This document shows positions 1-9,789 of a DNA stretch of 53,883 nucleotides, in pieces. The stretch covers positions 1 to 53,883 of the forward strand of contig JAZLFA010000032.1 in assembly GCA_045615545.1 (NCBI GenBank), written 5' to 3'. Both the position numbers and the translations under genes were made by a program. This DNA comes from Bacilli bacterium. GTDB lineage: Bacteria; Bacillota_I; Bacilli_A; RFN20; CAG-826. Numbering within the stretch: position 1 is the first letter of the stretch; each line of letters begins with the position of its first letter. The notes under the pieces were generated by a model. It saw nothing but the letters and a program-made list of their open reading frames with translations. It made no database searches and had not been told where the DNA came from.

Positions 1-30
1 CGATAAGATAATCATAATGTTGTTTTTTCA
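1..30 (-). CDS. 5' end of an unidentified CDS running off the left edge (MKKQHYDYLI...)
   Basis: Minus-strand ATG at 28-30, open to the window edge. Only 10 codons are visible. Confidence 0.2.
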
Positions 31-137
31 TAACATATTTACTATACCAATTTAGTTGGTAGTAATAAACACTGAGTGTTTTTTGTTGAGTAATAATCTA
101 GAAAGTTATCTCGTTTATGGTAAGCAACTAATCATCA

Positions 138-1430
138 TTAAAACTTAAGCTGTAACAAATACGGGGCAAAAGAATCTGCTAATGAATGAAAATATCCAGG
201 AATTAAAATACCACTACTTACGAACGGTCGAATAGGTTTAAAATTTACCATCATATAAACCATTGCAACTTTAAAACAATGTACATCTATTGTTGCTTCG
301 TTAGTAAAACTATCTCGAAATAATACATTAGCGCCATTTTTATGTTTTGACAAATAATTGATAAATTTTACTTCCTTGGGTTTATTTGATATAAAATCAT
401 TGTAAAATTTGTTTCTAAAATCAGCACCATAAACGAAAATTGACCAAGCGATAAATAATTCCGCACACATAAAATCAAGTGGCCTTTTCTCGTTATTTGG
501 GTAAGCTAATTTATCTACCAACATTGTTTGATTAATTATTTTGCAAATATTTCTTATCCTAAATCCTTCAAACATATTGGTCAGAAAACCATATATCTCT
601 TGTTCACTAAACCCTCTAGTAGGTGGGCCAAAAGCATTTGAAAAGTCTGAAAGCAAACATTCATAATCATCAGAATTTTCACCACAACTTAACTTATAGG
701 AAAAGTCTAGTATTTTACGAAGATATTGTGGAGCCATATCATTTCTTCCATAGTAATGTTCTATCATTGGATTTAATTGCTCACTATCAACACAAATAAT
801 TGTGGCGATATTTTTAACTCGTTCATTAATATGATGGATCCTTTCAATTACCTTAATTGCATATTCTGGCAAACACCTGTCTAATTCATCGACAACAAAA
901 ACAACAGGCATTTTTTCTGATATTGTGATTAATGATTTACACAATAAATTCTTGGCTTCTTTCAACTCTTTATTTGGATTAAAACCGTCATCAATTTTTC
1001 CAAAATTTATGTATTTTTTGGTTTTATAAAAGATTTTTTGTCCAGTTTCTATTGGTTTGAAACCAAATTTTCTATAAACAATACCGTCTAAAAATTTAGC
1101 AATTTCCGTCGCAACATCAACAAGTATCTGTTTGCAATCTACATGCATCATGCAATCAATCATTTCATTTATTTGATCATTAATTGAATCAAGGATCCCA
1201 ATAACAGGTTCTTCATAGTAATCATTATCCCAAGCATTGTAACAAACAAATAAATAATCATTTTGAACTTCTTGTCTTAGTAATTCTAAAAGAAAAGATT
1301 TACCTATTCCCCACTTACCATCAATTGCAAAAGAGATGCTTTCGTCATCACGCAAGCCATTTGCTAAGATATTTTTGATCATTTTTATATCGCGTTCTCT
1401 ATGTAAACAGTCTTGTTCTTGTTTTTTCAT
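138..1430 (-). CDS. KAP-family P-loop NTPase
   Basis: 430-aa ORF. Walker A is DGKWGIGKSF, followed by YNAWDNDYYEEP. Walker B/KAP signature is VVFVVDELDRCLPEYAIKVIERI. RBS GGAGAA lies 7 nt upstream. The ATG shares a nucleotide with the upstream stop (TAATG). Confidence 0.85.
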   Translation of the reverse strand: MKKQEQDCLHRERDIKMIKNILANGLRDDESISFAIDGKWGIGKSFLLELLRQEVQNDYLFVCYNAWDNDYYEEPVIGILDSINDQINEMIDCMMHVDCKQILVDVATEIAKFLDGIVYRKFGFKPIETGQKIFYKTKKYINFGKIDDGFNPNKELKEAKNLLCKSLITISEKMPVVFVVDELDRCLPEYAIKVIERIHHINERVKNIATIICVDSEQLNPMIEHYYGRNDMAPQYLRKILDFSYKLSCGENSDDYECLLSDFSNAFGPPTRGFSEQEIYGFLTNMFEGFRIRNICKIINQTMLVDKLAYPNNEKRPLDFMCAELFIAWSIFVYGADFRNKFYNDFISNKPKEVKFINYLSKHKNGANVLFRDSFTNEATIDVHCFKVAMVYMMVNFKPIRPFVSSGILIPGYFHSLADSFAPYLLQLKF

Positions 1431-1795
1431 TATATTTTCTCCAAACTACTCATTTTGTATTGGGAATAAAGTCTTGCAAAGCTATTCTTATTAAGCTCAT
1501 TATATAAATCATAATTAGGCAAAAAGAACTCTTCTTCATCCAACATATTAATATCGTCAATGCCAATTACTAATACATGTTTATTTAAAAACATATAGTG
1601 ATTTTCGTGTTCGATAAATTCATTTCTATATCTGCCAATAATCCAATTCTTAAATTTCCAATATTCATCTAGAGACATTTCCATTGAATTTGAACAAACG
1701 TCATTGTATAAAAAATCACCTTGAGAATAATATCTTCCAGGATATCTAGTTATCACTTCTCTAACACTACTTTTGATTATTACTTGCTTACTCAT
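1430..1795 (-). CDS. hypothetical 121-aa protein, third gene of the ATPase/TOPRIM/KAP operon
   Basis: ORF wedged between the TOPRIM-like gene (10-nt gap) and the KAP gene (stop/start overlap). I recognise no motif. Confidence 0.6.
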   Translation of the reverse strand: MSKQVIIKSSVREVITRYPGRYYSQGDFLYNDVCSNSMEMSLDEYWKFKNWIIGRYRNEFIEHENHYMFLNKHVLVIGIDDINMLDEEEFFLPNYDLYNELNKNSFARLYSQYKMSSLEKI

Positions 1796-1805
1796 ATATC
1801 ACGAC

Positions 1806-2324
1806 TTATTTCTTCCTTATATCTTTTCCATTGCCCTTTAATAATGATGCAAAGAAAACATCATTAGGTCTTCTTGACCACAATTTATCAAAATCAAAAT
1901 TAATTGATTTAAGTTTGCTATTAATATTGCTGCACGCAATGAAAGCTTTCTTAAAGGCATTATTACCTTGTGTTTTAAAAATAGAATCTATTGTTTTAGC
2001 ATCACTGGCGTATAGTATTTCTTCTTCAAAGTTATTTACAGATTGAATATGTATTATTCCCTTACAGTGTTTTAAGCCACTAACAATCGTAATATTTGTT
2101 TTAAGTCTTTCTTTCTTGTCTTTATCAAGTTTATCGGTATCATATTGAAAGATGAATTTTGTCGGTTCGGTAACATCTCTTAATTGATTAGATGTAAATT
2201 CCTGACATAACAAATTAAACACTATAACCTTGCCAGGCAAAAACTTAGGATCCTTATTAATGATTTTATTTTCATCAATAAGTTTCTTTTCTGTTTCGCC
2301 TTCAACATAATATCGATAAAGCAT
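1806..2324 (-). CDS. small TOPRIM-like protein (RloB / DUF4276 / DUF4435-like)
   Basis: 172 aa. N-terminal YYVEGETEKKLI matches the conserved Glu strand of TOPRIM/RloB. FIFQYDTDKLD supplies a DxD motif. RBS GGAGAT lies upstream. The start is 1 nt after the ATPase stop. Confidence 0.6.
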   Translation of the reverse strand: MLYRYYVEGETEKKLIDENKIINKDPKFLPGKVIVFNLLCQEFTSNQLRDVTEPTKFIFQYDTDKLDKDKKERLKTNITIVSGLKHCKGIIHIQSVNNFEEEILYASDAKTIDSIFKTQGNNAFKKAFIACSNINSKLKSINFDFDKLWSRRPNDVFFASLLKGNGKDIRKK

Positions 2325-2325
2325 A

Positions 2326-3447
2326 TTACTTAATATCTCCTAAGGTATATATTGGACTTAAGTCAGGAAGAACCGAGAAACAATCATTTCTATAATGATT
2401 CTTGATTGAAGCAGAATTGCGCTTTTCATATTTTGAAGCGTTAATATATTGAATATAATCTTGGTTATCTTCTATTATGGTTTTCTTTAAAAAACCAAAA
2501 GTATGAACTGGAAAGTCCATATCCAAAACATCAGTATTATGTGTCGTAATGAATATCTGATCATCGTTTTTATCATAACCACTTAAGTGCGCTATGATAG
2601 CGAGTTCTATTTCTGAGTTAGCAAAAGAAAATTGTTCATCCAAATAATAAAAGCCAAACATATCTCTTTTCAAACCCCATATAACATCCGTTAAACTAAA
2701 GGCGTACTTTGTGCCACTACTCATATAATTAATAGAGGTGTATTTTCTTCCGTTTTCAATGACAAGTGGGTCGTTGCTTCCTCTAAAGTAAATGTAAAAA
2801 CATTTTTCCATATCTTTATTGATTGTGACTTTCTCAATAGAAGGGTCAAATACTTTAAGTATTGTTTCAAGTAACAAACGATAACTTTCTTCATCTTCTT
2901 TTTTATATGAATAATAGACATAATTATTTTCTGGATATGAAAAATTCCAGCCCATTGTGAGTTGCTTTTCTAAAGCGTCAACATAATAAAGTGGTTCTTC
3001 ATTAATTTGCATTAGTCTTTTTAAAGCAGATTCATACGTATCATCTTTGTTAAGTTCAACATGGCGAATAGATAACTTGATTTCAGCCCTATTTTCGTCC
3101 TTAGCATTAGGCGGCAGAAGACATATAATACGATATAAAATACCTTTATTTACTAGATCAATTTCAAAAGTTGATGTTTTATCTTCATCATTAACAGCTT
3201 CAAGAATGTCGCTTATTTCTTTTTTATTAAGCAAATAGAAAATATTTTGGAATAATTTACCTAATGTAGTCTTGCCAGTGGAGTTAGCTCCTACAATAAT
3301 GTTAAATCGACGATATCTAAAGTTTGGATAATCTTTTAGCCATTCTTTCTCTAAAGTACTACCCACTATCTTTTTTGGATAGGAAAAATCCATTTCAAAA
3401 TTATTAAAATCATAAAGGTTATTTGCCTTTAAATTCATTACTACCAT
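2326..3447 (-). CDS. ABC-type AAA ATPase (AAA_21/AAA_15-like, as in OLD, AbiL, PARIS AriA, Gabija GajA)
   Basis: Walker A GANSTGKTT, signature-like SSGTK, Walker B FYYLDE, H-loop FITTHNTD. I moved the start to the ATG at 3445-3447 (MVVMNLK) because GGAGG sits 8 nt upstream. The ORF track extends to 3516. Confidence 0.8.
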   Translation of the reverse strand: MVVMNLKANNLYDFNNFEMDFSYPKKIVGSTLEKEWLKDYPNFRYRRFNIIVGANSTGKTTLGKLFQNIFYLLNKKEISDILEAVNDEDKTSTFEIDLVNKGILYRIICLLPPNAKDENRAEIKLSIRHVELNKDDTYESALKRLMQINEEPLYYVDALEKQLTMGWNFSYPENNYVYYSYKKEDEESYRLLLETILKVFDPSIEKVTINKDMEKCFYIYFRGSNDPLVIENGRKYTSINYMSSGTKYAFSLTDVIWGLKRDMFGFYYLDEQFSFANSEIELAIIAHLSGYDKNDDQIFITTHNTDVLDMDFPVHTFGFLKKTIIEDNQDYIQYINASKYEKRNSASIKNHYRNDCFSVLPDLSPIYTLGDIK

Positions 3448-3464
3448 TCTTCTTTCCTCCATTA

Positions 3465-3544
3465 GTTCGCCAATTACGAACAAATACATTGTTACATAAC
3501 AACGCCTTAGAATCAACTATTACTTCGCATTTTACGAACAAATA
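3465..3544. promoter_or_regulatory. two copies of a palindromic operator-like site upstream of the ATPase operon
   Basis: GTTCGccaattaCGAAC at 3465-3481 and cTTCGcattttaCGAAC at 3523-3539. Each is followed by AAATA. The ~21-bp repeat units start 58 bp apart. Confidence 0.45.
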
Positions 3545-3649
3545 ACTATAAATTTAATATTTGGACAGAATGTACGTGGTACAATACAGTTATAATTAAT
3601 CAAAAATCGAAAGGTTTATATTAATTAGAAATAATGTAGTAAATGTTGA

Positions 3650-3945
3650 ACAGAATCAGCGGATGACGCTAAATACTGTAGTAAGTGTGGCGCTCCAACA
3701 AATGCATATATAGAAACAATTGAAAAAGATAACACTCTTCAAACAGTCGCTAAAGTCTTTATGGTGTTGTGCACTGTTTGTTTAGGAATATTCATTATTC
3801 CTTTATGTTGGATAATCCCAATGACGGTCCACTACTTCAGAAGTTGTAGTCAAAATAAAAAGTAGGAGTTGGCTGTAAAGTCTGTTCCCTACTATTTGTT
3901 AGTTTAATCGCGGGTATATTAATGCTCGTTGATGATGCTGATTAA
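3650..3945 (+). pseudogene. zinc-ribbon/TM2-type small membrane protein, lacking a start and frameshifted
   Basis: The frame opens right after a TGA with no ATG (..DDAKYCSKCGAPT..CWIIPMTVHYF..). An in-frame TAG falls at 3863-3865 after an A-rich tract. The hydrophobic C-terminus (VGVGCKVCSLLFVSLIAGILMLVDDAD*) continues in a different frame from 3862. Confidence 0.6.
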
Positions 3946-3946
3946 T

Positions 3947-4020
3947 TGATAAGCATTCCTCGGTGAATGAGGAGCGTCATTATTCACGTATACAATACTT
4001 GTATAGATAAAGCCTTCTCT
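3947..4020 (-). pseudogene. 3'-terminal remnant of a second GNAT acetyltransferase gene
   Basis: About 70 nt, roughly four-fifths identical by eye to 5055-5128. It translates as ..REGFIYTSIVYVNNDAPHSPRNAYQL.., against KEGFIYTGIIYVNNDTPHSPRNAYQL in the intact GNAT. Confidence 0.6.
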
Positions 4021-4063
4021 TCTTATAAAGTGGCACAATTACATCTTATTATCGTTTTACCGA

Positions 4064-4279
4064 TCATCTTTTATTATTTTTCAATAATTCATTTTTGTTA
4101 TTTGCTTCAAAAGATTTTACCGCTTCTAATATTTCTTTTTTATTAGTACTATTCACCAATGAAACAATAAATGTTTTTGATTCAGTATCTAACTCATCCC
4201 AAGATCCATATAAATCAGTGAATGCTTTTTTAATATCTTCCAAAAGAATTGGAGCTCCCCTCTCCTCTTCTTCAATCAA
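4064..4279 (-). CDS. acidic hypothetical protein, possibly a gene remnant
   Basis: The frame is open from 4338 but contains no ATG. The tracked start is TTG, and I see no convincing RBS. Confidence 0.3.
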   Translation of the reverse strand: MIEEEERGAPILLEDIKKAFTDLYGSWDELDTESKTFIVSLVNSTNKKEILEAVKSFEANNKNELLKNNKR

Positions 4280-4375
4280 AATATTAACAATGTCTGGCCT
4301 ATCTTGTTTATATTCTTTCTTAAGTTCTTTGGCTAATTAGTCAAATATAATTGTATTGCCTCTTTATCAAAAGCT

Positions 4376-4954
4376 TTAAACAGCGGCATATATATCATTC
4401 TCCACAATATTGTACTTCATAAACTCTTTTATTGAGTTTTGTTTGCTTTTCTTTTTGTATTGATCAGTATTCATAACTGCATCCATAATCAATATATCTT
4501 TTGGATATACAATATTGGTCAATTTATGCATCCTAATAAAATCATATTTCTTGTTTATTTCTTTTTTTGAAATAGCAGACAAGTAATCTAACATAGCTAA
4601 CAAGTAAAACGATTTAGTGTAATCTTTAGAAACATAAAAAGCGATAATATCATTAGATTCTTCTATATTTTTAATCACATCTTCAATTTTATTTTTGCTA
4701 ACAAAGTGACAAACATTACTTTTAAATATTTCAAAATCGTCGATATTATATTTATCGTCATCGACATTACAAAGTAAATCTTCCATTGATAAATTTACTG
4801 CTTTAGAGATTTTTAATAATGTTTCGGCGGAACATTTTTCTAATTCTGTTTTATTGCAACACAAATCCGAAAGCGTAGCTTGGGGAACTCCACTTAGTTT
4901 AGAAAGTGCATATTGACTCATTTCAATTTTGTTTAATAATCGATTAATATCCAT
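4376..4954 (-). CDS. XRE-family HTH protein with an uncharacterised ~125-aa C-terminal domain
   Basis: N-terminal MSQYALSKLSGVPQATLSDLCCNK...LLKISKAVNLSMEDLL is a classic HTH_3. The start is set at MDINRLL (ATG 4952-4954), 6 nt downstream of a consensus -10. Confidence 0.75.
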   Translation of the reverse strand: MDINRLLNKIEMSQYALSKLSGVPQATLSDLCCNKTELEKCSAETLLKISKAVNLSMEDLLCNVDDDKYNIDDFEIFKSNVCHFVSKNKIEDVIKNIEESNDIIAFYVSKDYTKSFYLLAMLDYLSAISKKEINKKYDFIRMHKLTNIVYPKDILIMDAVMNTDQYKKKSKQNSIKEFMKYNIVENDIYAAV

Positions 4955-4960
4955 GTTTAT

Positions 4961-4989
4961 ACTATATCGGTACACCGGTATATTGTCAA
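4961..4989 (-). promoter_or_regulatory. sigma-70 type promoter giving a leaderless mRNA
   Basis: Minus strand reads TTGACA - 17 nt - TATAGT - 6 nt - ATG. Confidence 0.6.
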
Positions 4990-5038
4990 TGTATAAAGAA
5001 AACAATTTTATTAAACTTATCGTAAATTAACCTTATCA

Positions 5039-5539
5039 TTACTTTATTACCAACTGATAAGCATTCCTTGGTGAATGAGGTGTATCATTATTAACATAGA
5101 TAATACCCGTATAGATGAAGCCTTCCTTCAGGATAGCTTTTATCATTGGGGTATTATTTTTATGAGTATCAATCCTAATATCTAAGTTAGGATAATTATG
5201 TTTAATATATTCGATTACTAGATGAAATATACCTTTATAGGTAAAAGAGCTCGCTAATCGATGAATGGTGATATATTCATTATCATTAAGCCAACTACCT
5301 TCGATATCTAAATAGCAAGGATCGCTTCCCTTAATAAGGGCGAACACTCCTAATATATCGTTATTATCTTTTATAACAAATAATCTAGATAATGATATGT
5401 CTTCTTTTAATGCTTCCTCTTTAGGCCAAGAAGATCCCCATTGATCTTTATTACCGTTATTCACCATAAAAGCCCTAGCGTTACTATAAATAGCGAGTAT
5501 ATTAGGTAGATCAAGTTTTGTTGCTAATTCAATTATCAT
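5039..5539 (-). CDS. GNAT family N-acetyltransferase
   Basis: 166 aa with typical GNAT layout and C-terminal ..GFIYTGIIYVNNDTPHSPRNAYQ. It starts 3 nt after the AbiEii stop. Confidence 0.75.
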   Translation of the reverse strand: MIIELATKLDLPNILAIYSNARAFMVNNGNKDQWGSSWPKEEALKEDISLSRLFVIKDNNDILGVFALIKGSDPCYLDIEGSWLNDNEYITIHRLASSFTYKGIFHLVIEYIKHNYPNLDIRIDTHKNNTPMIKAILKEGFIYTGIIYVNNDTPHSPRNAYQLVIK

Positions 5540-5542
5540 AAC

Positions 5543-6412
5543 TTATTCACTCTGTAATATGTCTAGGGTTGATATAAATAACTCCTTAGACCAACTAGAC
5601 ACTTTTTCTATGTTCTTAACAAAAGGAATAACATCTTGGATTGCCATTTTATAATCAACACTTATAAACTTTTCCTTAAGCATATCTTTTAATATGTTTA
5701 TATCTAGTTTCATATCCATTGGTATCTTACCATTCTTTTTTAATTTGTTTTCTAGATAAGTGATATTAACCTTAGTGTGTTTGCTACAATAGAAAAGATA
5801 GTCATAAAAATCTCTCCCTTTTACTTTATTTTGATATTCGCGGCAAATAAGAGCTGCTATCTTGCCCGCAAATAAAGTTGATTGATTATAAATTGTCACT
5901 TTACTTGGAGAAGGAAATAATAAATAATGCGATTCCACTACCCCACCAATAGGATTATCCATATCTATTTCCAATTTAATTTTGATGAGTTGGTTATTAA
6001 TCACTTTATTTACTTCGGGATTTTTAGGAAAAAACTCTAGAAGCACCATTTTGCTATTCGAATTAATAAATGCCCTCTGCATATCAATCTTATTAGGATT
6101 AATTTCCTTTTGAGTGATTGAAATATCAATCCCATATGAAGCAAACTCTTTTTGGATATTAGCAAAATAATCAGATAAGTTAAAACCCTTGGACTTATCA
6201 ATAATGGCAAAATCCAAATCTTCAGAAAAACGATCCAAGCCATGAAACACTCTTAAACATGTACCGCCATAAAAGGCAGCTTTAGTAAAAAAATCCCCTC
6301 GTGATAGACCCGCTAACACTATTTCTTGCATTACTTCTTTAACCGCGTTTTCTCTTTCCTTGTTGTTGATAGGGTTATATTTAGAAATCATTTCTTCTAA
6401 TTCACTATTCAT
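5543..6412 (-). CDS. abiEii: AbiEii/AbiGii-family nucleotidyltransferase toxin (DUF1814)
   Basis: FYGGTCLRVFHGLDRFSEDLDF motif and 289 aa length. It overlaps the upstream AbiEi-like gene by 8 nt. Confidence 0.8.
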   Translation of the reverse strand: MNSELEEMISKYNPINNKERENAVKEVMQEIVLAGLSRGDFFTKAAFYGGTCLRVFHGLDRFSEDLDFAIIDKSKGFNLSDYFANIQKEFASYGIDISITQKEINPNKIDMQRAFINSNSKMVLLEFFPKNPEVNKVINNQLIKIKLEIDMDNPIGGVVESHYLLFPSPSKVTIYNQSTLFAGKIAALICREYQNKVKGRDFYDYLFYCSKHTKVNITYLENKLKKNGKIPMDMKLDINILKDMLKEKFISVDYKMAIQDVIPFVKNIEKVSSWSKELFISTLDILQSE

Positions 6413-6998
6413 GTTTATATTCCTTTCTAATTAGTTTCACCAATAGGTTTAAGTTATTTGTTTTATATAATGGGGCAAGTTTTAAAAGAATATCCATATC
6501 ACATTTACTAAATTCTTCTTCATCCACTCTTTTATCAATAAAAAGTAATATCTTTAATTGCTTAACGCTTTTAACCATTCTCCATTTATATAAAGAATCA
6601 CATATGGCTTTTTCTTTACTAGCCAACCGAGCAACATAATCATCATCTTTTAACAACGTTAATCCATAAGGAAATACTCTTTCAGGGATATCTGAATATG
6701 TATATCTAGCAAATACATTCGTGTAACTCTTATTTTTCCTCTCATTCAAACTCGCTGATGTCACTGCATACACTCTTTCAGGAATCAAACCATAATAAGA
6801 TAAAGCGCTTTCAAAACTAATGTATGATGGCGATAATATTACTTGCGATAAAAAGAAGGGATCAACATTTCTATTATCTTCATATATCCCTCTATTTATT
6901 CTAAATAAAAGATTATTATCACAATCCCTTTTTATCTTATCTAATGGATTAGAATAATCCTTATATTTCTCTTTTAGCATTGGAATAGTAAATATCAT
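6405..6998 (-). CDS. abiEi: AbiEi-family antitoxin/transcriptional regulator
   Basis: 197 aa. LFRINRGIYED motif in the N-terminal winged-helix region. Position and overlap with abiEii fit. RBS GGAGAA lies 7 nt upstream. Confidence 0.7.
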   Translation of the reverse strand: MIFTIPMLKEKYKDYSNPLDKIKRDCDNNLLFRINRGIYEDNRNVDPFFLSQVILSPSYISFESALSYYGLIPERVYAVTSASLNERKNKSYTNVFARYTYSDIPERVFPYGLTLLKDDDYVARLASKEKAICDSLYKWRMVKSVKQLKILLFIDKRVDEEEFSKCDMDILLKLAPLYKTNNLNLLVKLIRKEYKHE

Positions 6999-7020
6999 AT
7001 TATTTTCTCCATCAAATACA

Positions 7021-7112: not shown

Positions 7113-8441
7113 TTATTTACCTGAAGGAATATTCCCACCAGTGACATTCGCGTTTCTATTAACCTTAGTCCACTTAGGTTTAGAGAATATACCAATCGTA
7201 ATAGTGATAACGTAAACGATTGAAAATACTGGGAATAATAATATTCCAGATATTAATTCTCTTCTAGTTTTCGCTCCCATCTTCTTATAGTCAGATATAA
7301 CTAGTAAAGAAGATTGTAAGATACCACAGAACACAAATAACGCTCCTATTGCGATTGCGATAACAATAGAGGTACATGTTACCCAGTCTCCACCAGTAAT
7401 ACCAAAGGCATTAAAGGTATGAATTCCTGGGAACATCCAGTGATAAATATATCCGTATATATAATATCCTGGTAACCATAAACAAAGAATTGGACAGATT
7501 GGAATAAAGATATAAGTTAGCCAGTTCTCTAAGAAAGAGAAGTTAAGTCTTATAAAGGTGTAAAACCAGAGCTTAGGCGTGTATTTAAAGAAGAGTCGAG
7601 TATTTCCCGCACCTAGGCGCTTATTACGCGCTAGCGTGTCTTTAAACGTGCTTGGAAGGTCTTCATACACTACTGCATCTTCAACAAAGTGACAACGATA
7701 TCCTTCAAACATACGTTTAAAGTTAAATTCTGTATCCTCGCACATCGTGGTAGTGTCATATCCACCGATGTTTTTAATAATCTCATAAGCAGTTAAACTT
7801 CCAGGTCCATTTACATGCGCGTCTAAATGTAATCTTTCTCTACATCTAGAAGAACATCTCGAATCAAAGATGTAATATAAACCACAAGCTTTAGTAAAAC
7901 TTGATTGTGTCATATTTAATGCAGACTCATATGGTCTAGCAATCTTAGCTCCACTATTATAGGCATCATTCATCAGTGAGAAGAATTCGGGATTAATATG
8001 GTTATCAGCGTCAAGTCTAATAATAAAGTCATATTCAATTCCTTCTTTTAAAAGAAGTTCGAAAGCATACTTAAGTGCGTATCCCACGATATGATGTTTT
8101 GGATTATCGTCAGTATGAACATATACTTTAGCGCCCGCTTTTCTTGCAAGCTCAGCAGTATTATCAGTACAGTTATCCGCGACTACATACACATCAAACA
8201 TATCGCGAGGATATTGTTGGTTTTCTAAATCTTTAACTGTATCAAAGATAACATCTGCTTCATTATGAGCAGGTATCATAACTGCAATACGGTTTTTCTT
8301 TTCTGTTTTTGGGAATGTTTTCTTTTTAAGCCAAAATAAACACATATATAAAAGCTGTAAGAAGAAAGGTACTCCAATACAATATAAAACTACATTATTT
8401 ATTTGATCAAAAACTTGATATACAGTGTCCCACCAATTCAT
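7113..8441 (-). CDS. membrane-embedded family 2 glycosyltransferase (processive type)
   Basis: N-terminal TM helix. MIPAHNEADVI...VVADNCTDNT...RLDADN motifs. Multiple C-terminal TM helices. RBS GGAGG. Confidence 0.8.
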   Translation of the reverse strand: MNWWDTVYQVFDQINNVVLYCIGVPFFLQLLYMCLFWLKKKTFPKTEKKNRIAVMIPAHNEADVIFDTVKDLENQQYPRDMFDVYVVADNCTDNTAELARKAGAKVYVHTDDNPKHHIVGYALKYAFELLLKEGIEYDFIIRLDADNHINPEFFSLMNDAYNSGAKIARPYESALNMTQSSFTKACGLYYIFDSRCSSRCRERLHLDAHVNGPGSLTAYEIIKNIGGYDTTTMCEDTEFNFKRMFEGYRCHFVEDAVVYEDLPSTFKDTLARNKRLGAGNTRLFFKYTPKLWFYTFIRLNFSFLENWLTYIFIPICPILCLWLPGYYIYGYIYHWMFPGIHTFNAFGITGGDWVTCTSIVIAIAIGALFVFCGILQSSLLVISDYKKMGAKTRRELISGILLFPVFSIVYVITITIGIFSKPKWTKVNRNANVTGGNIPSGK

Positions 8442-8501: not shown

Positions 8502-8948
8502 TTATAATTTCATTATTTTTTTAATTTTCTCTTCTTTTGAAAGAATAACAATATTATTATCTTTGATAATTTCTAATATTGCCTTAATAGGAGAAACAGT
8601 GTGATAAGGAACATAGGCTTTTACCATATAAGATAAAGGCACTAATTGGAATGCTTTTTTACTAGTAATATGAAGATAGTTACATAGATAGCGATATATA
8701 TAACCACACCATCTCATAATCTCAGGATTATATATTGTTCCTTTACTATTTGTTTCTTCCTTTATACGTGCATATACATAATCATCTCCATATGGAGATA
8801 AGCGATATGTATCATCATCCATTAATTTAGAATAAAAAGAGAACATAAATCTTTTAACAAAAATAGATGAGTTCAAATGCTCAATTGCGCTTTTTTCAAA
8901 TAGTTCAGCTTGATTTTTTGCGTAATTATCTAGATTAGAAGAGTTCAT
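8502..8948 (-). CDS. DUF3791-like protein
   Basis: Partner position next to the DUF3990 gene. Contains a ..YVPYHTVSP.. motif. The start is set at ATG MNSS (8946-8948) with AAGGAA upstream; the tracked start at 8978 is TTG. It overlaps the upstream gene by 14 nt. Confidence 0.55.
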   Translation of the reverse strand: MNSSNLDNYAKNQAELFEKSAIEHLNSSIFVKRFMFSFYSKLMDDDTYRLSPYGDDYVYARIKEETNSKGTIYNPEIMRWCGYIYRYLCNYLHITSKKAFQLVPLSYMVKAYVPYHTVSPIKAILEIIKDNNIVILSKEEKIKKIMKL

Positions 8949-9789
8949 CGATATATTTTCCTTTTCTACGATATTCAAGTAGCGCCATCTTCACTTGTTT
9001 AGTATATTCTTCTACTTGGGCATTCTTCACTTTAAGGTAATAGTTTTTCTCTTCTTTAGGAAGATAAAGGCATTCGATATTATTTAGTGACTTAATCGCG
9101 TCATTAGACTTAAGCACATATTGTTTTCCTAGATCCGTTAAGCTTATCGCATGTAGACAAGCTTCATCAGTAATTTCGCCTTTAATAAAACTGTTGATCA
9201 ATTCATAAACTCGATTGTCCGCGATAGGAGCGATGATATAATCTAGTTTTTCTATCTCATTAACAATATCTAATACTTGCTTAGGGATTTGTTTGCCCTC
9301 AAAAGCGCCGCGGTAATATAAAACAGCATATAACCATTCTCTTGATGAAGAAAATTCTTTGTACTTTAAATTATCCTTATTTTCAAAATAAAAAGGATAT
9401 ACACACCCACTACTAGATAAACAAATCCACATAGCCGCTTGTGTTAAATTGGTACCTAAATAAAATCCACTACCGAAATCATTAGGTTTAATAGAATGTG
9501 CATTATCTATTTCACCTTCAATAACATTTCTTGCCCCATGAAATAACAAAATGTTTCCATTTCTATTTTCTTGCAAAAAACGTGACTTAATTAAATTAAG
9601 ATCTAATCCACTTGTATAAGAAAATGAATAGATATTTTCTAGACTACAAAAAGAAGGAATTAATGTTCCGTTTTGATAACGAATCAAGTTTGCTCTAGAA
9701 ATACTTACTTTACAAGCAAGCTCTTCGTCATTTAATTCAAAATATTGTTTAATTCTTTCAATATCTTTTACAACATCAAAACTTTTCAT
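8935..9789 (-). CDS. XRE-type HTH fused to a DUF3990 domain
   Basis: N-terminal LACKVSISRANLIRYQNGTLIPS is an HTH. LLFHGAR...DFGSGFYLGTNLTQAAMW...IIAPIADNRVYE...GKQYVLKS matches my memory of DUF3990. Confidence 0.7.
   Translation of the reverse strand: MKSFDVVKDIERIKQYFELNDEELACKVSISRANLIRYQNGTLIPSFCSLENIYSFSYTSGLDLNLIKSRFLQENRNGNILLFHGARNVIEGEIDNAHSIKPNDFGSGFYLGTNLTQAAMWICLSSSGCVYPFYFENKDNLKYKEFSSSREWLYAVLYYRGAFEGKQIPKQVLDIVNEIEKLDYIIAPIADNRVYELINSFIKGEITDEACLHAISLTDLGKQYVLKSNDAIKSLNNIECLYLPKEEKNYYLKVKNAQVEEYTKQVKMALLEYRRKGKYIDELF

Follow-up and report, generated by a model that had tools for sequence, protein, structure and literature searches.

AbiL is a pair that combines an ABC ATPase with a TOPRIM/OLD-like protein, the mechanism of which is not known and is possibly PARIS-like (PMC13064643). 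Single-gene KAP NTPases from Enterococcus and from gut metagenomes protect against phage and need both Walker B and the C-terminal region to do so (bioRxiv 10.1101/2025.10.07.681051), and tmn, also a KAP protein, shows significant co-occurrence with AbiL, PrrC, PsyrTA, Septu I, Gabija and CBASS II and synergizes with Gabija, Septu I and PrrC via their ATPase domains, AbiL having had no part in the synergy tests (bioRxiv 10.1101/2022.08.21.504612). Here we describe a cluster of four genes, G1 to G4, at positions 138-3447 of a 53,883-nucleotide (nt) stretch from a Bacilli bacterium (assembly GCA_045615545.1, contig JAZLFA010000032.1; this whole stretch is called the window below). The cluster places an AbiL-like pair (G1-G2), an orphan gene (G3) and the gene of a KAP NTPase (G4) end to end. 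The kinds of component, that is, AbiL/PARIS-class pairs and KAP NTPase defenses, are already known; new are the compact TOPRIM partner family, the orphan open reading frame (ORF) and the operon that hard-wires an AbiL-like pair to a KAP gene, of which two cases were seen. We consider it reasonably probable that the cluster is a composite of two modules, each autonomous elsewhere, which are stacked in one transcription unit with the orphan gene between them.

Comparison With Described Systems

The pair follows the order of AbiL (Lactococcus) and of RloA/RloB, in which the gene of an ABC/Rad50-like ATPase is followed by a small TOPRIM/OLD-like gene. It differs from AbiL in that G2 is shorter (about 170 amino acids, aa), belongs to a separate rare family and, in the window, has no AbiLii match, and in that the window pair carries two extra genes predicted to be co-transcribed with it. 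Judged by these matches, the pair would be AbiL-like in kind and would fall outside the current PADLOC definition of AbiL, of which AbiLi is matched and AbiLii is not. An ABC ATPase plus a TOPRIM nuclease is also the make-up of PARIS, GajA and the class 1 and class 2 OLD proteins, and a common logic, in which sensing falls to the ATPase and execution to the TOPRIM protein, is likely. Unlike PARIS, the pair shows no DUF4435/AriB match in G2, and the AriA match of G1 (4.4e-7) is weak and falls below that of AbiLi, on which grounds a PARIS identity was rejected; unlike GajA and OLD, its ATPase and TOPRIM parts are separate rather than fused and no GajB-like helicase is present, and the Gabija and class 1 OLD identities were rejected as well. 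Menshen and Septu were suggested only by weak NsnB and PtuA matches of G1.

G4 is built like the validated KAPs, with a KAP P-loop domain and then a helical C-terminal region without known domains. Unlike EF_KAP, which has transmembrane helices, it has none, and unlike the single-gene PDC-S20/KAP defenses it has no recognizable promoter of its own and follows an orphan ORF; for PDC-S20 itself, no published test was found, its name being absent from the 20 results that a full-text literature search listed. It is also like QatA and PifA, both KAP NTPases, to which its P-loop part matches. A QatABCD identity was rejected, since QatB, QatC and QatD are absent from the cluster and the QatA match covers the P-loop only, and so was PifA, for which the match is again confined to the P-loop and the profile has 720 positions against the 430 aa of G4. 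As with tmn, a KAP-type NTPase is here physically linked to a system with a sensory ABC ATPase; unlike the cluster, tmn is an enterobacterial membrane protein that is co-localized with separate systems on plasmids, with no coupled operon.

Gene Organization of the Cluster

The genes (from the ORF listing and the sequence) and the region upstream of them are as follows:

3461..3544, minus strand: putative operon promoter region, with two 26-nt direct repeats (3461-3486 and 3519-3544, 85% alike)
2326..3447, minus strand: G1, 373 aa
1806..2324, minus strand: G2, 172 aa
1430..1795, minus strand: G3, 121 aa
138..1430, minus strand: G4, 430 aa

G1 and G2 are separated by 1 nt and G2 and G3 by 10 nt, and the G3 stop and the G4 start overlap in TAATG (-1 nt). 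An earlier reading of this DNA, made from the letters and their ORFs (the sequence-only reading), had described four closely spaced minus-strand genes; the ORF listing and the sequence give the same junctions (+1, +10 and -1 nt), and all the motifs that it quoted were located at the expected places in G1, G2 and G4. The G1 frame remains open back to a TTG at 3516; the ATG at 3447 is preferred as its start because a GGAGG lies 8 nt upstream and the homolog in the closest relative of the pair (locus L009) starts at the same point. G2 and G4 are each preceded, at 8-11 nt, by a GGAG that lies within the gene before, so that the Shine-Dalgarno sequence of G4 lies inside G3, and that of G3 is weak (only AGGAAG, 16 nt upstream). 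No terminator-like sites were seen within the cluster on the coding (minus) strand, the plus strand across the same interval holds only short ORFs (52-71 aa), and a hydropathy scan found no transmembrane-like segments in any of the four proteins. Past the G4 stop, at a distance of 107 nt, a minus-strand frame (MKKQHYDYLI...) begins with an ATG at 31 and leaves the contig.

Each of the 26-nt repeats upstream of G1 contains TTCG...CGAA. In L009 (70-165) the same repeat-promoter-repeat layout surrounds TTGACA-N17-TATAAT upstream of G1-G2, and the repeats may be operators. A promoter scan returned fewer sites than shuffled sequence and offered no guidance.

The Probable ATPase-TOPRIM Pair

The predicted product of G1 is an ABC-type (Rad50/SMC-like) ATPase of the AbiLi type. 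The PADLOC model for AbiLi (PDLC02335) matches it at 3.1e-21 over residues 4-367 (profile positions 51-291 of 326), with weaker PADLOC matches to AriA, mad3, LmuB, NsnB and PtuA. In Pfam, AAA_21 just exceeds its cutoff (29.9 bits against 27) over the N-terminal part only, and SMC_N matches residues 46-308 at 7.5e-4. The motifs, beginning with GANSTGKT at 53, stand in the correct order, which together with the profile matches bears out the ABC-type ATPase recognized in the sequence-only reading. The functional sites of G1 are:

K59: Walker A lysine
243, SSGTK: signature
266, FYYLDE: Walker B
300, ITTHN: H-loop

G2 is a basic protein (172 aa, isoelectric point (pI) 9.3) of a rare family, with 8 protein clusters among 5.8 billion and a length of about 170 aa, in which E8, E12, D62, D64, N98, E100 and E102 (E...DxD...ExE) are invariant in all eight sequences. 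Its motifs, YYVEGETE at 5 and YDTD at 61, carry a TOPRIM signature, with the glutamate E8 on predicted strand 2-7 and D62-T-D64 on predicted strand 55-62. An AlphaFold2 (AF2) model on the family alignment (predicted local distance difference test (pLDDT) 85.9) has an alternating strand-helix (beta-alpha-beta) core, and the best four Foldseek matches to it in the PDB are C-terminal TOPRIM regions of OLD proteins (6nk8/6njw, from Burkholderia and Xanthomonas), matches that are weak (E about 8e-3, probability 0.85-0.90, template modeling score (TM) about 0.4). Among the eight family members, PADLOC AbiLii matches three (best 6.5e-5); in Pfam, OLD-like_TOPRIM reaches 3.2e-3 in one relative and DUF4276 reaches 0.05 in two. 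The AbiLii, RloB, DUF4276, DUF4435, AriB and TOPRIM profiles give no match to the window G2, and hhalign of the G2 family against the AbiLii-type sequences of loci L091 and L098 was not significant, with only the N-terminal EGxxE aligned. The most likely identity of G2, from its conserved residues and its model, is that of a minimal TOPRIM nuclease remote from canonical AbiLii/RloB, and it is presumed to be the nuclease effector of the pair. The earlier TOPRIM reading of G2 gains an invariant Glu/DxD and a model with weak OLD matches and is left without a profile match to the window protein itself.

We gathered loci with G2 relatives by exact-protein look-ups, one genome scan and one viral-contig scan. 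A G1 homolog lies directly upstream of the G2 relative in 33 of the 34 recovered loci, at gaps of -131 to +23 nt, the exception (L123) having a G2 fragment only. Apart from the window, they stand for about 19 lineages, drawn from gut and rumen Bacilli, Erysipelotrichaceae, Coprobacillaceae, Lachnospiraceae and Clostridia metagenome-assembled genomes. The genes downstream of G2 differ between lineages and are mostly 50-180 nt away or on the opposite strand, and in L010 and L017 the pair closes with terminator-like hairpins. Because the downstream genes are unrelated and mostly separated, and because in most lineages an intergenic region or a terminator-like hairpin follows the pair, G1-G2 is a self-contained two-gene module and, as far as sequence comparison can tell, is an autonomous AbiL-like one.

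The pair is also found on the mobilizable 12.7-kilobase (kb) plasmid pYH12207-5 of Acinetobacter piscicola (L029 3001-4788), as a G1-type "ATP-binding protein" and a 174-aa "hypothetical protein" that is a member of the G2 family (hhalign, 99.9% probability); the pair therefore reaches Proteobacteria and moves on plasmids. This was the single plasmid returned by a protein search of plasmids with G1, and a plasmid DNA search with window positions 1-7000 gave no match. Relatives of the pair also occur on nine IMG/VR viral contigs.

The closest relative of the pair is in L009, where both proteins are 74% identical to those of the window. DNA homology between the two loci extends from window position 3545 to 1860, taking in the promoter repeats, G1 and G2, and ends at the end of G2, which marks a recombination boundary at the G2 stop. 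The third gene of L009 differs from G3: it encodes a Cys-rich protein of 251+ aa, overlaps the G2 stop (L009 1802-2554) and has no PADLOC match, and it may be alternative cargo at the position that G3-G4 occupy in the window. By eye the protein (CPICG...HVPP...CSSCNN) appears HNH-like, and it has a weak DUF5986 match.

The KAP NTPase and Its Contexts

G4 is predicted to be a soluble P-loop NTPase that belongs to the KAP family and, within PADLOC, to the PDC-S20 type. Pfam KAP_NTPase matches it at 4.9e-29 (101.9 bits against a cutoff of 20) and the PDC-S20 model PDLC04958 at 3.2e-69 (residues 5-375, profile positions 2-385 of 458), one of four models of this single-gene candidate system that match in all. 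The PADLOC models for QatA and PifA reach about 1e-13 to 1e-14 (QatA 5e-14) over the P-loop part only, and NCBIfam QatA gives 48 bits against a cutoff of 600. GKWGIGKS lies at 38 and DELDRC at 181, providing the Walker A lysine K44 and the Walker B residues D181/E182; K44, D181, E182, D184 and R185 are invariant in 25 G4 relatives. The KAP assignment first made from these motifs is well founded on the Pfam and PDC-S20 matches and the invariant Walker residues. Transmembrane helices inserted in the NTPase domain are typical of many KAP proteins and are not universal; G4 has no such helices, its maximum Kyte-Doolittle value being 1.54 over 19-residue windows.

G4 has 1179 homologs, and those in its sub-clade of roughly 430 aa keep varied company. 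The KAP of L013, 47% identical to G4, is coupled to an upstream gene for a 605-aa HTH protein, that of L034 to a downstream gene of 259 aa; the KAP of L015 has Abi_alpha upstream and Gabija downstream; that of L033 stands alone with AbiH downstream; and those of P0013 and P0016 stand alone. The KAP genes of P0013, P0014 and P0016 have >100 nt of non-coding sequence upstream. A KAP alignment retrieved 80 metagenome loci, and many of the KAPs there lie between hsdS and hsdR in type I restriction-modification (R-M) operons of the order hsdM-hsdS-KAP-hsdR, 3-52 nt from the upstream neighbor and 9-51 nt from the downstream one, as in the following:

L051 280-7868: PDC-S20-type KAP within an hsdS/hsdR operon (also in L042, L053, L049, L040 and L068)

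Tight packing is thus normal for the KAP family and is no sign of a shared system. Nor does it discriminate in the window, because the AbiEii gene and the next ORF (5039..5539) are likewise only 3 nt apart. As judged from their gene neighborhoods, G4-type KAPs are autonomous elsewhere. In L068 an AbiJ-like gene was also noticed ahead of the KAP gene.

The Orphan Gene and a Possible G3-G4 System

G3 encodes an acidic protein (121 aa, pI 5.35) and begins 10 nt past the G2 stop. It is probably a real gene, because a 121-codon open frame at about 29% G+C is very unlikely by chance (roughly 3e-5 per frame, a base-composition estimate). It has no Pfam, NCBIfam or PADLOC match, and a word-indexed protein search returned only G3 itself. 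A full phmmer search of 1.84 billion representatives gave one marginal match, a 112-aa protein (P0130; E 9.2e-4, 27% identity), the alignment of which runs collinearly from end to end and seems genuine. The gene of that protein (L030 415-1376) lies 8 nt after a 204-aa Band_7/SPFH-like gene, with an HTH gene near and no KAP or AbiL gene in the neighborhood. With G3 as query, a relaxed tblastn gave no match in any of the fetched loci, so that no G3 relative is present in any G1/G2 or G4 locus; G3 is therefore not a piece of some other KAP's partner gene, and not a remnant of the PDC-M14B type described below either. Its AF2 model is poor (pLDDT 65.5) and found no meaningful fold match in Foldseek. 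The label of orphan that it had been given at the outset is apt: no profile match, no fold match and one marginal relative.

These features bear on the possibility that the cluster holds two two-gene systems, the AbiL-like G1-G2 and a G3-G4 unit in which G3 would be a partner (antitoxin, inhibitor or adaptor) of the KAP. In its favor, the last codon of G3 overlaps the start of G4, G3 contains a good Shine-Dalgarno sequence for G4, and G4 relatives are often coupled to one variable partner, be it the 605-aa protein, Abi_alpha or the downstream 259-aa protein; many antitoxin-like partners are small and acidic, as G3 is. However, a G3-like gene is found at no other KAP locus, the marginal relative of G3 is not beside a KAP, several close KAP relatives stand alone, so that a partner is not required, and the structure prediction for G3 is uninformative. 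We regard this arrangement as a serious minority possibility, on the unlikely side; a role of G3 as a KAP-specific partner would be a sub-hypothesis compatible with stacked modules, for which the stop/start overlap is the sole support.

Recurrence of the Pair-KAP Association

The sequence-only reading had proposed a single undescribed four-gene system. This is not supported: all four families occur together in none of about 19 other G1-G2 lineages and in none of about 43 KAP clusters, so that the families do not co-occur as a set, and G3 belongs to no other G1/G2 or G4 locus. When the four window proteins were searched iteratively against all the fetched loci, what did recur was the association of AbiL-type pairs with KAP genes. 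A 3.3-kb rumen contig (L039) carries a G1 fragment, a G2 homolog and a 430-aa PDC-S20 KAP (3.7e-62), the start of which overlaps the G2 stop by 1 nt; it is the only G1-G2-KAP locus without G3. The earlier suggestion that a pair is hard-wired to a KAP NTPase and a small adaptor accordingly survives in part, with the coupled G1-G2-KAP of L039 in its favor and the adaptor missing there.

On six human-gut contigs (L095, L098, L099, L100, L107 and L108), a canonical AbiL pair (AbiLi 7.9e-69, AbiLii 2.3e-6) lies upstream of a KAP gene. PDC-M14A/B, an independent candidate system, stands complete between the two in L100 and L107, is reduced to a C-terminal 116-aa remnant in L098 and is absent from L095, L099 and L108, which indicates that modules can be brought together by deletion. 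An example of the complete arrangement is:

L100 2400-6892: AbiL / PDC-M14A/B / KAP

The flanks of these six contigs look BREX-like by eye. Elsewhere the order is different: L091 reads AbiH-KAP-AbiLi-AbiLii, and L019 has a PifA-like KAP 340 nt upstream of G1-G2, its sister L024 having a different upstream neighborhood. In a neighbor-joining tree of the KAPs, the window protein groups as sister to that of L013, a locus lacking an AbiL pair, and L039 lies at the base of the same sub-clade; the closest pair relatives of the window and of L039 (L009 and L010, respectively) are both without a KAP. The link between pair and KAP has therefore been made or lost more than once.

Such repetition could also mean that the genes form one integrated three- or four-gene system, in which the KAP, perhaps via G3, would co-opt the pair's ABC ATPase for use as a sensory switch or, in a variant, would be an alternative effector or sensor of the pair, so that protection would need both parts. 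Such a system would be the synergy of tmn with Gabija, Septu and PrrC in hard-wired form. The window genes are translationally coupled, L039 independently joins G1-G2 to a KAP by a 1-nt stop/start overlap, and a third gene is coupled in L009 too, in the closest sub-clade of the pair. In addition, an AbiL-type pair has a KAP neighbor in L019, in L091 and in the L095 group, Gabija has one in L015, and tmn has a published co-occurrence with AbiL (bioRxiv 10.1101/2022.08.21.504612). Against this, L009 and L010 have no KAP, and L013, L033, L034, L015, P0013 and P0016 have no AbiL pair; the window and L039 are not sisters in the KAP tree; G3 is missing from L039 and from every other locus; the order and spacing of the KAP vary (upstream, downstream, or split from the pair by another system); and G4 lacks the transmembrane helices of tmn. 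We think an integrated system unlikely and keep it under consideration because the adjacency is repeated independently and L039 is coupled.

A Probable Composite of Two Modules

The reading that we favor, at a strength somewhat above even, is the composite of stacked modules. Module 1 would be the divergent AbiL-like pair G1-G2 under its own promoter with operator-like repeats. By analogy with PARIS and AbiL, the G1 ATPase would sense infection and restrain or activate G2, and G2, as a small TOPRIM-type nuclease, would damage nucleic acid and so bring about abortive infection. Module 2 would be G4, the soluble KAP NTPase of the PDC-S20 candidate family. G3, a lineage-specific gene, would have been joined with G4 to the 3' end of the pair, and both would be read from the AbiL-like promoter. 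The route to the present arrangement may have been the loss of intervening genes in a defense hotspot, as in L095-L108. Against the earlier view of an undescribed system, defense models at the level of hidden Markov models exist for G1 (AbiLi) and for G4 (PDC-S20, a single-gene candidate); G2 and G3 of the window are uncovered.

Several points weigh against the composite. The cluster lies at a contig end, with 137 nt beyond G4, so that a fifth downstream gene is possible. G3 and G4 have no recognizable promoter of their own, and the expression of G4 here depends, for this reason, on the pair. The window G2 has no Pfam, NCBIfam or PADLOC match (PADLOC at E<=1). Finally, a KAP is adjacent to the pair in three of about 20 G1-G2 lineages (coupled downstream in the window and in L039, upstream in L019) and, with G4 as bait, an AbiL-type pair is adjacent in three of about 41 KAP clusters, plus the window; this suggests an AbiL-KAP recurrence above what would be expected of two arbitrary families, as a judgment and not from a computed background rate, the fetched loci each having been selected around G1/G2 or G4 and hence yielding no such rate for AbiL-KAP adjacency.

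Surroundings in the Window

Genes with recognizable families beyond the cluster include the following:

5543..6412: AbiEii (PADLOC 1.4e-92)
6405..6998: AbiEi (PADLOC 9.4e-58)
8935..9789: DUF3990 protein (9e-29), with an N-terminal HTH-like part

The AbiE module, a toxin-antitoxin/defense pair which the sequence-only reading had placed about 2 kb from the cluster, is indeed located about 2.1 kb away. Next to AbiEii, the ORF at 5039..5539 (166 aa) is GNAT-like by eye and has no Pfam match. A 74-nt direct repeat (3944-4017 and 5052-5125, 84% identity) copies the 3' end of that ORF, and the 1.1-kb block between the copies holds an HTH_26 gene (4376..5005) and a 71-aa ORF; the whole looks like an insertion or recombination scar and may be what had been called gene debris. 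The DUF3990 gene overlaps a 158-aa ORF (8502..8978) without a Pfam match, with which it may form another small two-gene module, and a glycosyltransferase gene lies at 7113..8441. The ORFs sampled beyond about 10.6 kb resemble genes of carbohydrate metabolism (pullulanase-like, aldose epimerase, GH53), defense genes being confined to the first 7-10 kb or so. Rfam at gathering thresholds found no match in the whole window (1-53883).

This setting has a bearing on two further ways of accounting for the cluster, namely that it is no anti-phage device at all and instead a mobile-element addiction or stability cassette, or that it is an assembly chimera at the G2/G3 junction. A small mobilizable plasmid and IMG/VR viral contigs do carry G1-G2-type pairs, as might be expected of a cassette of that kind, yet the window neighborhood is defense-rich (AbiE), and relatives of the cluster genes lie beside R-M, BREX-like, Gabija, AbiH, AbiJ and HEC-02 genes. 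A chimera would be in keeping with the contig-end position and with the L009 homology that stops at the G2 stop; it is at odds with the clean 10-nt junction, which is unlikely to come from a chimeric join, and with L039, which joins the pair to a KAP independently. Taking both together, we consider this very improbable.

Implications

Translational coupling alone is no proof of a defense system, and caution is in order since KAPs are routinely packed in unrelated operons such as those of type I R-M. More ambitiously, the cluster could represent a recurrent operon-fused PDC-S20 KAP/AbiL-like composite of gut and rumen Bacillota, with the window and L039 as its cases, in which the KAP would detect infection through the pair's ABC ATPase and G3 would serve as an adaptor specific to the lineage, a proposal that we put forward as speculative and quite unlikely as it stands. 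If true, the composite would amount to a hard-wired form of tmn-type synergy and would be the first case of a KAP NTPase and a TOPRIM nuclease serving as the two effector arms of one sensor.

Should the composite of two modules be correct, G1-G2 would represent an unmodeled compact branch of ATPase-plus-TOPRIM systems, the roughly 170-aa TOPRIM partner of which goes unrecognized by Pfam in every tested member and by PADLOC in the window, with a range that takes in gut and rumen Bacillota, an Acinetobacter plasmid and viral contigs. The cluster would also be a natural example of two defense modules welded into one transcription unit and would offer a small, tractable construct for the cooperation between KAP and AbiL-type ATPases that published co-occurrence suggests.

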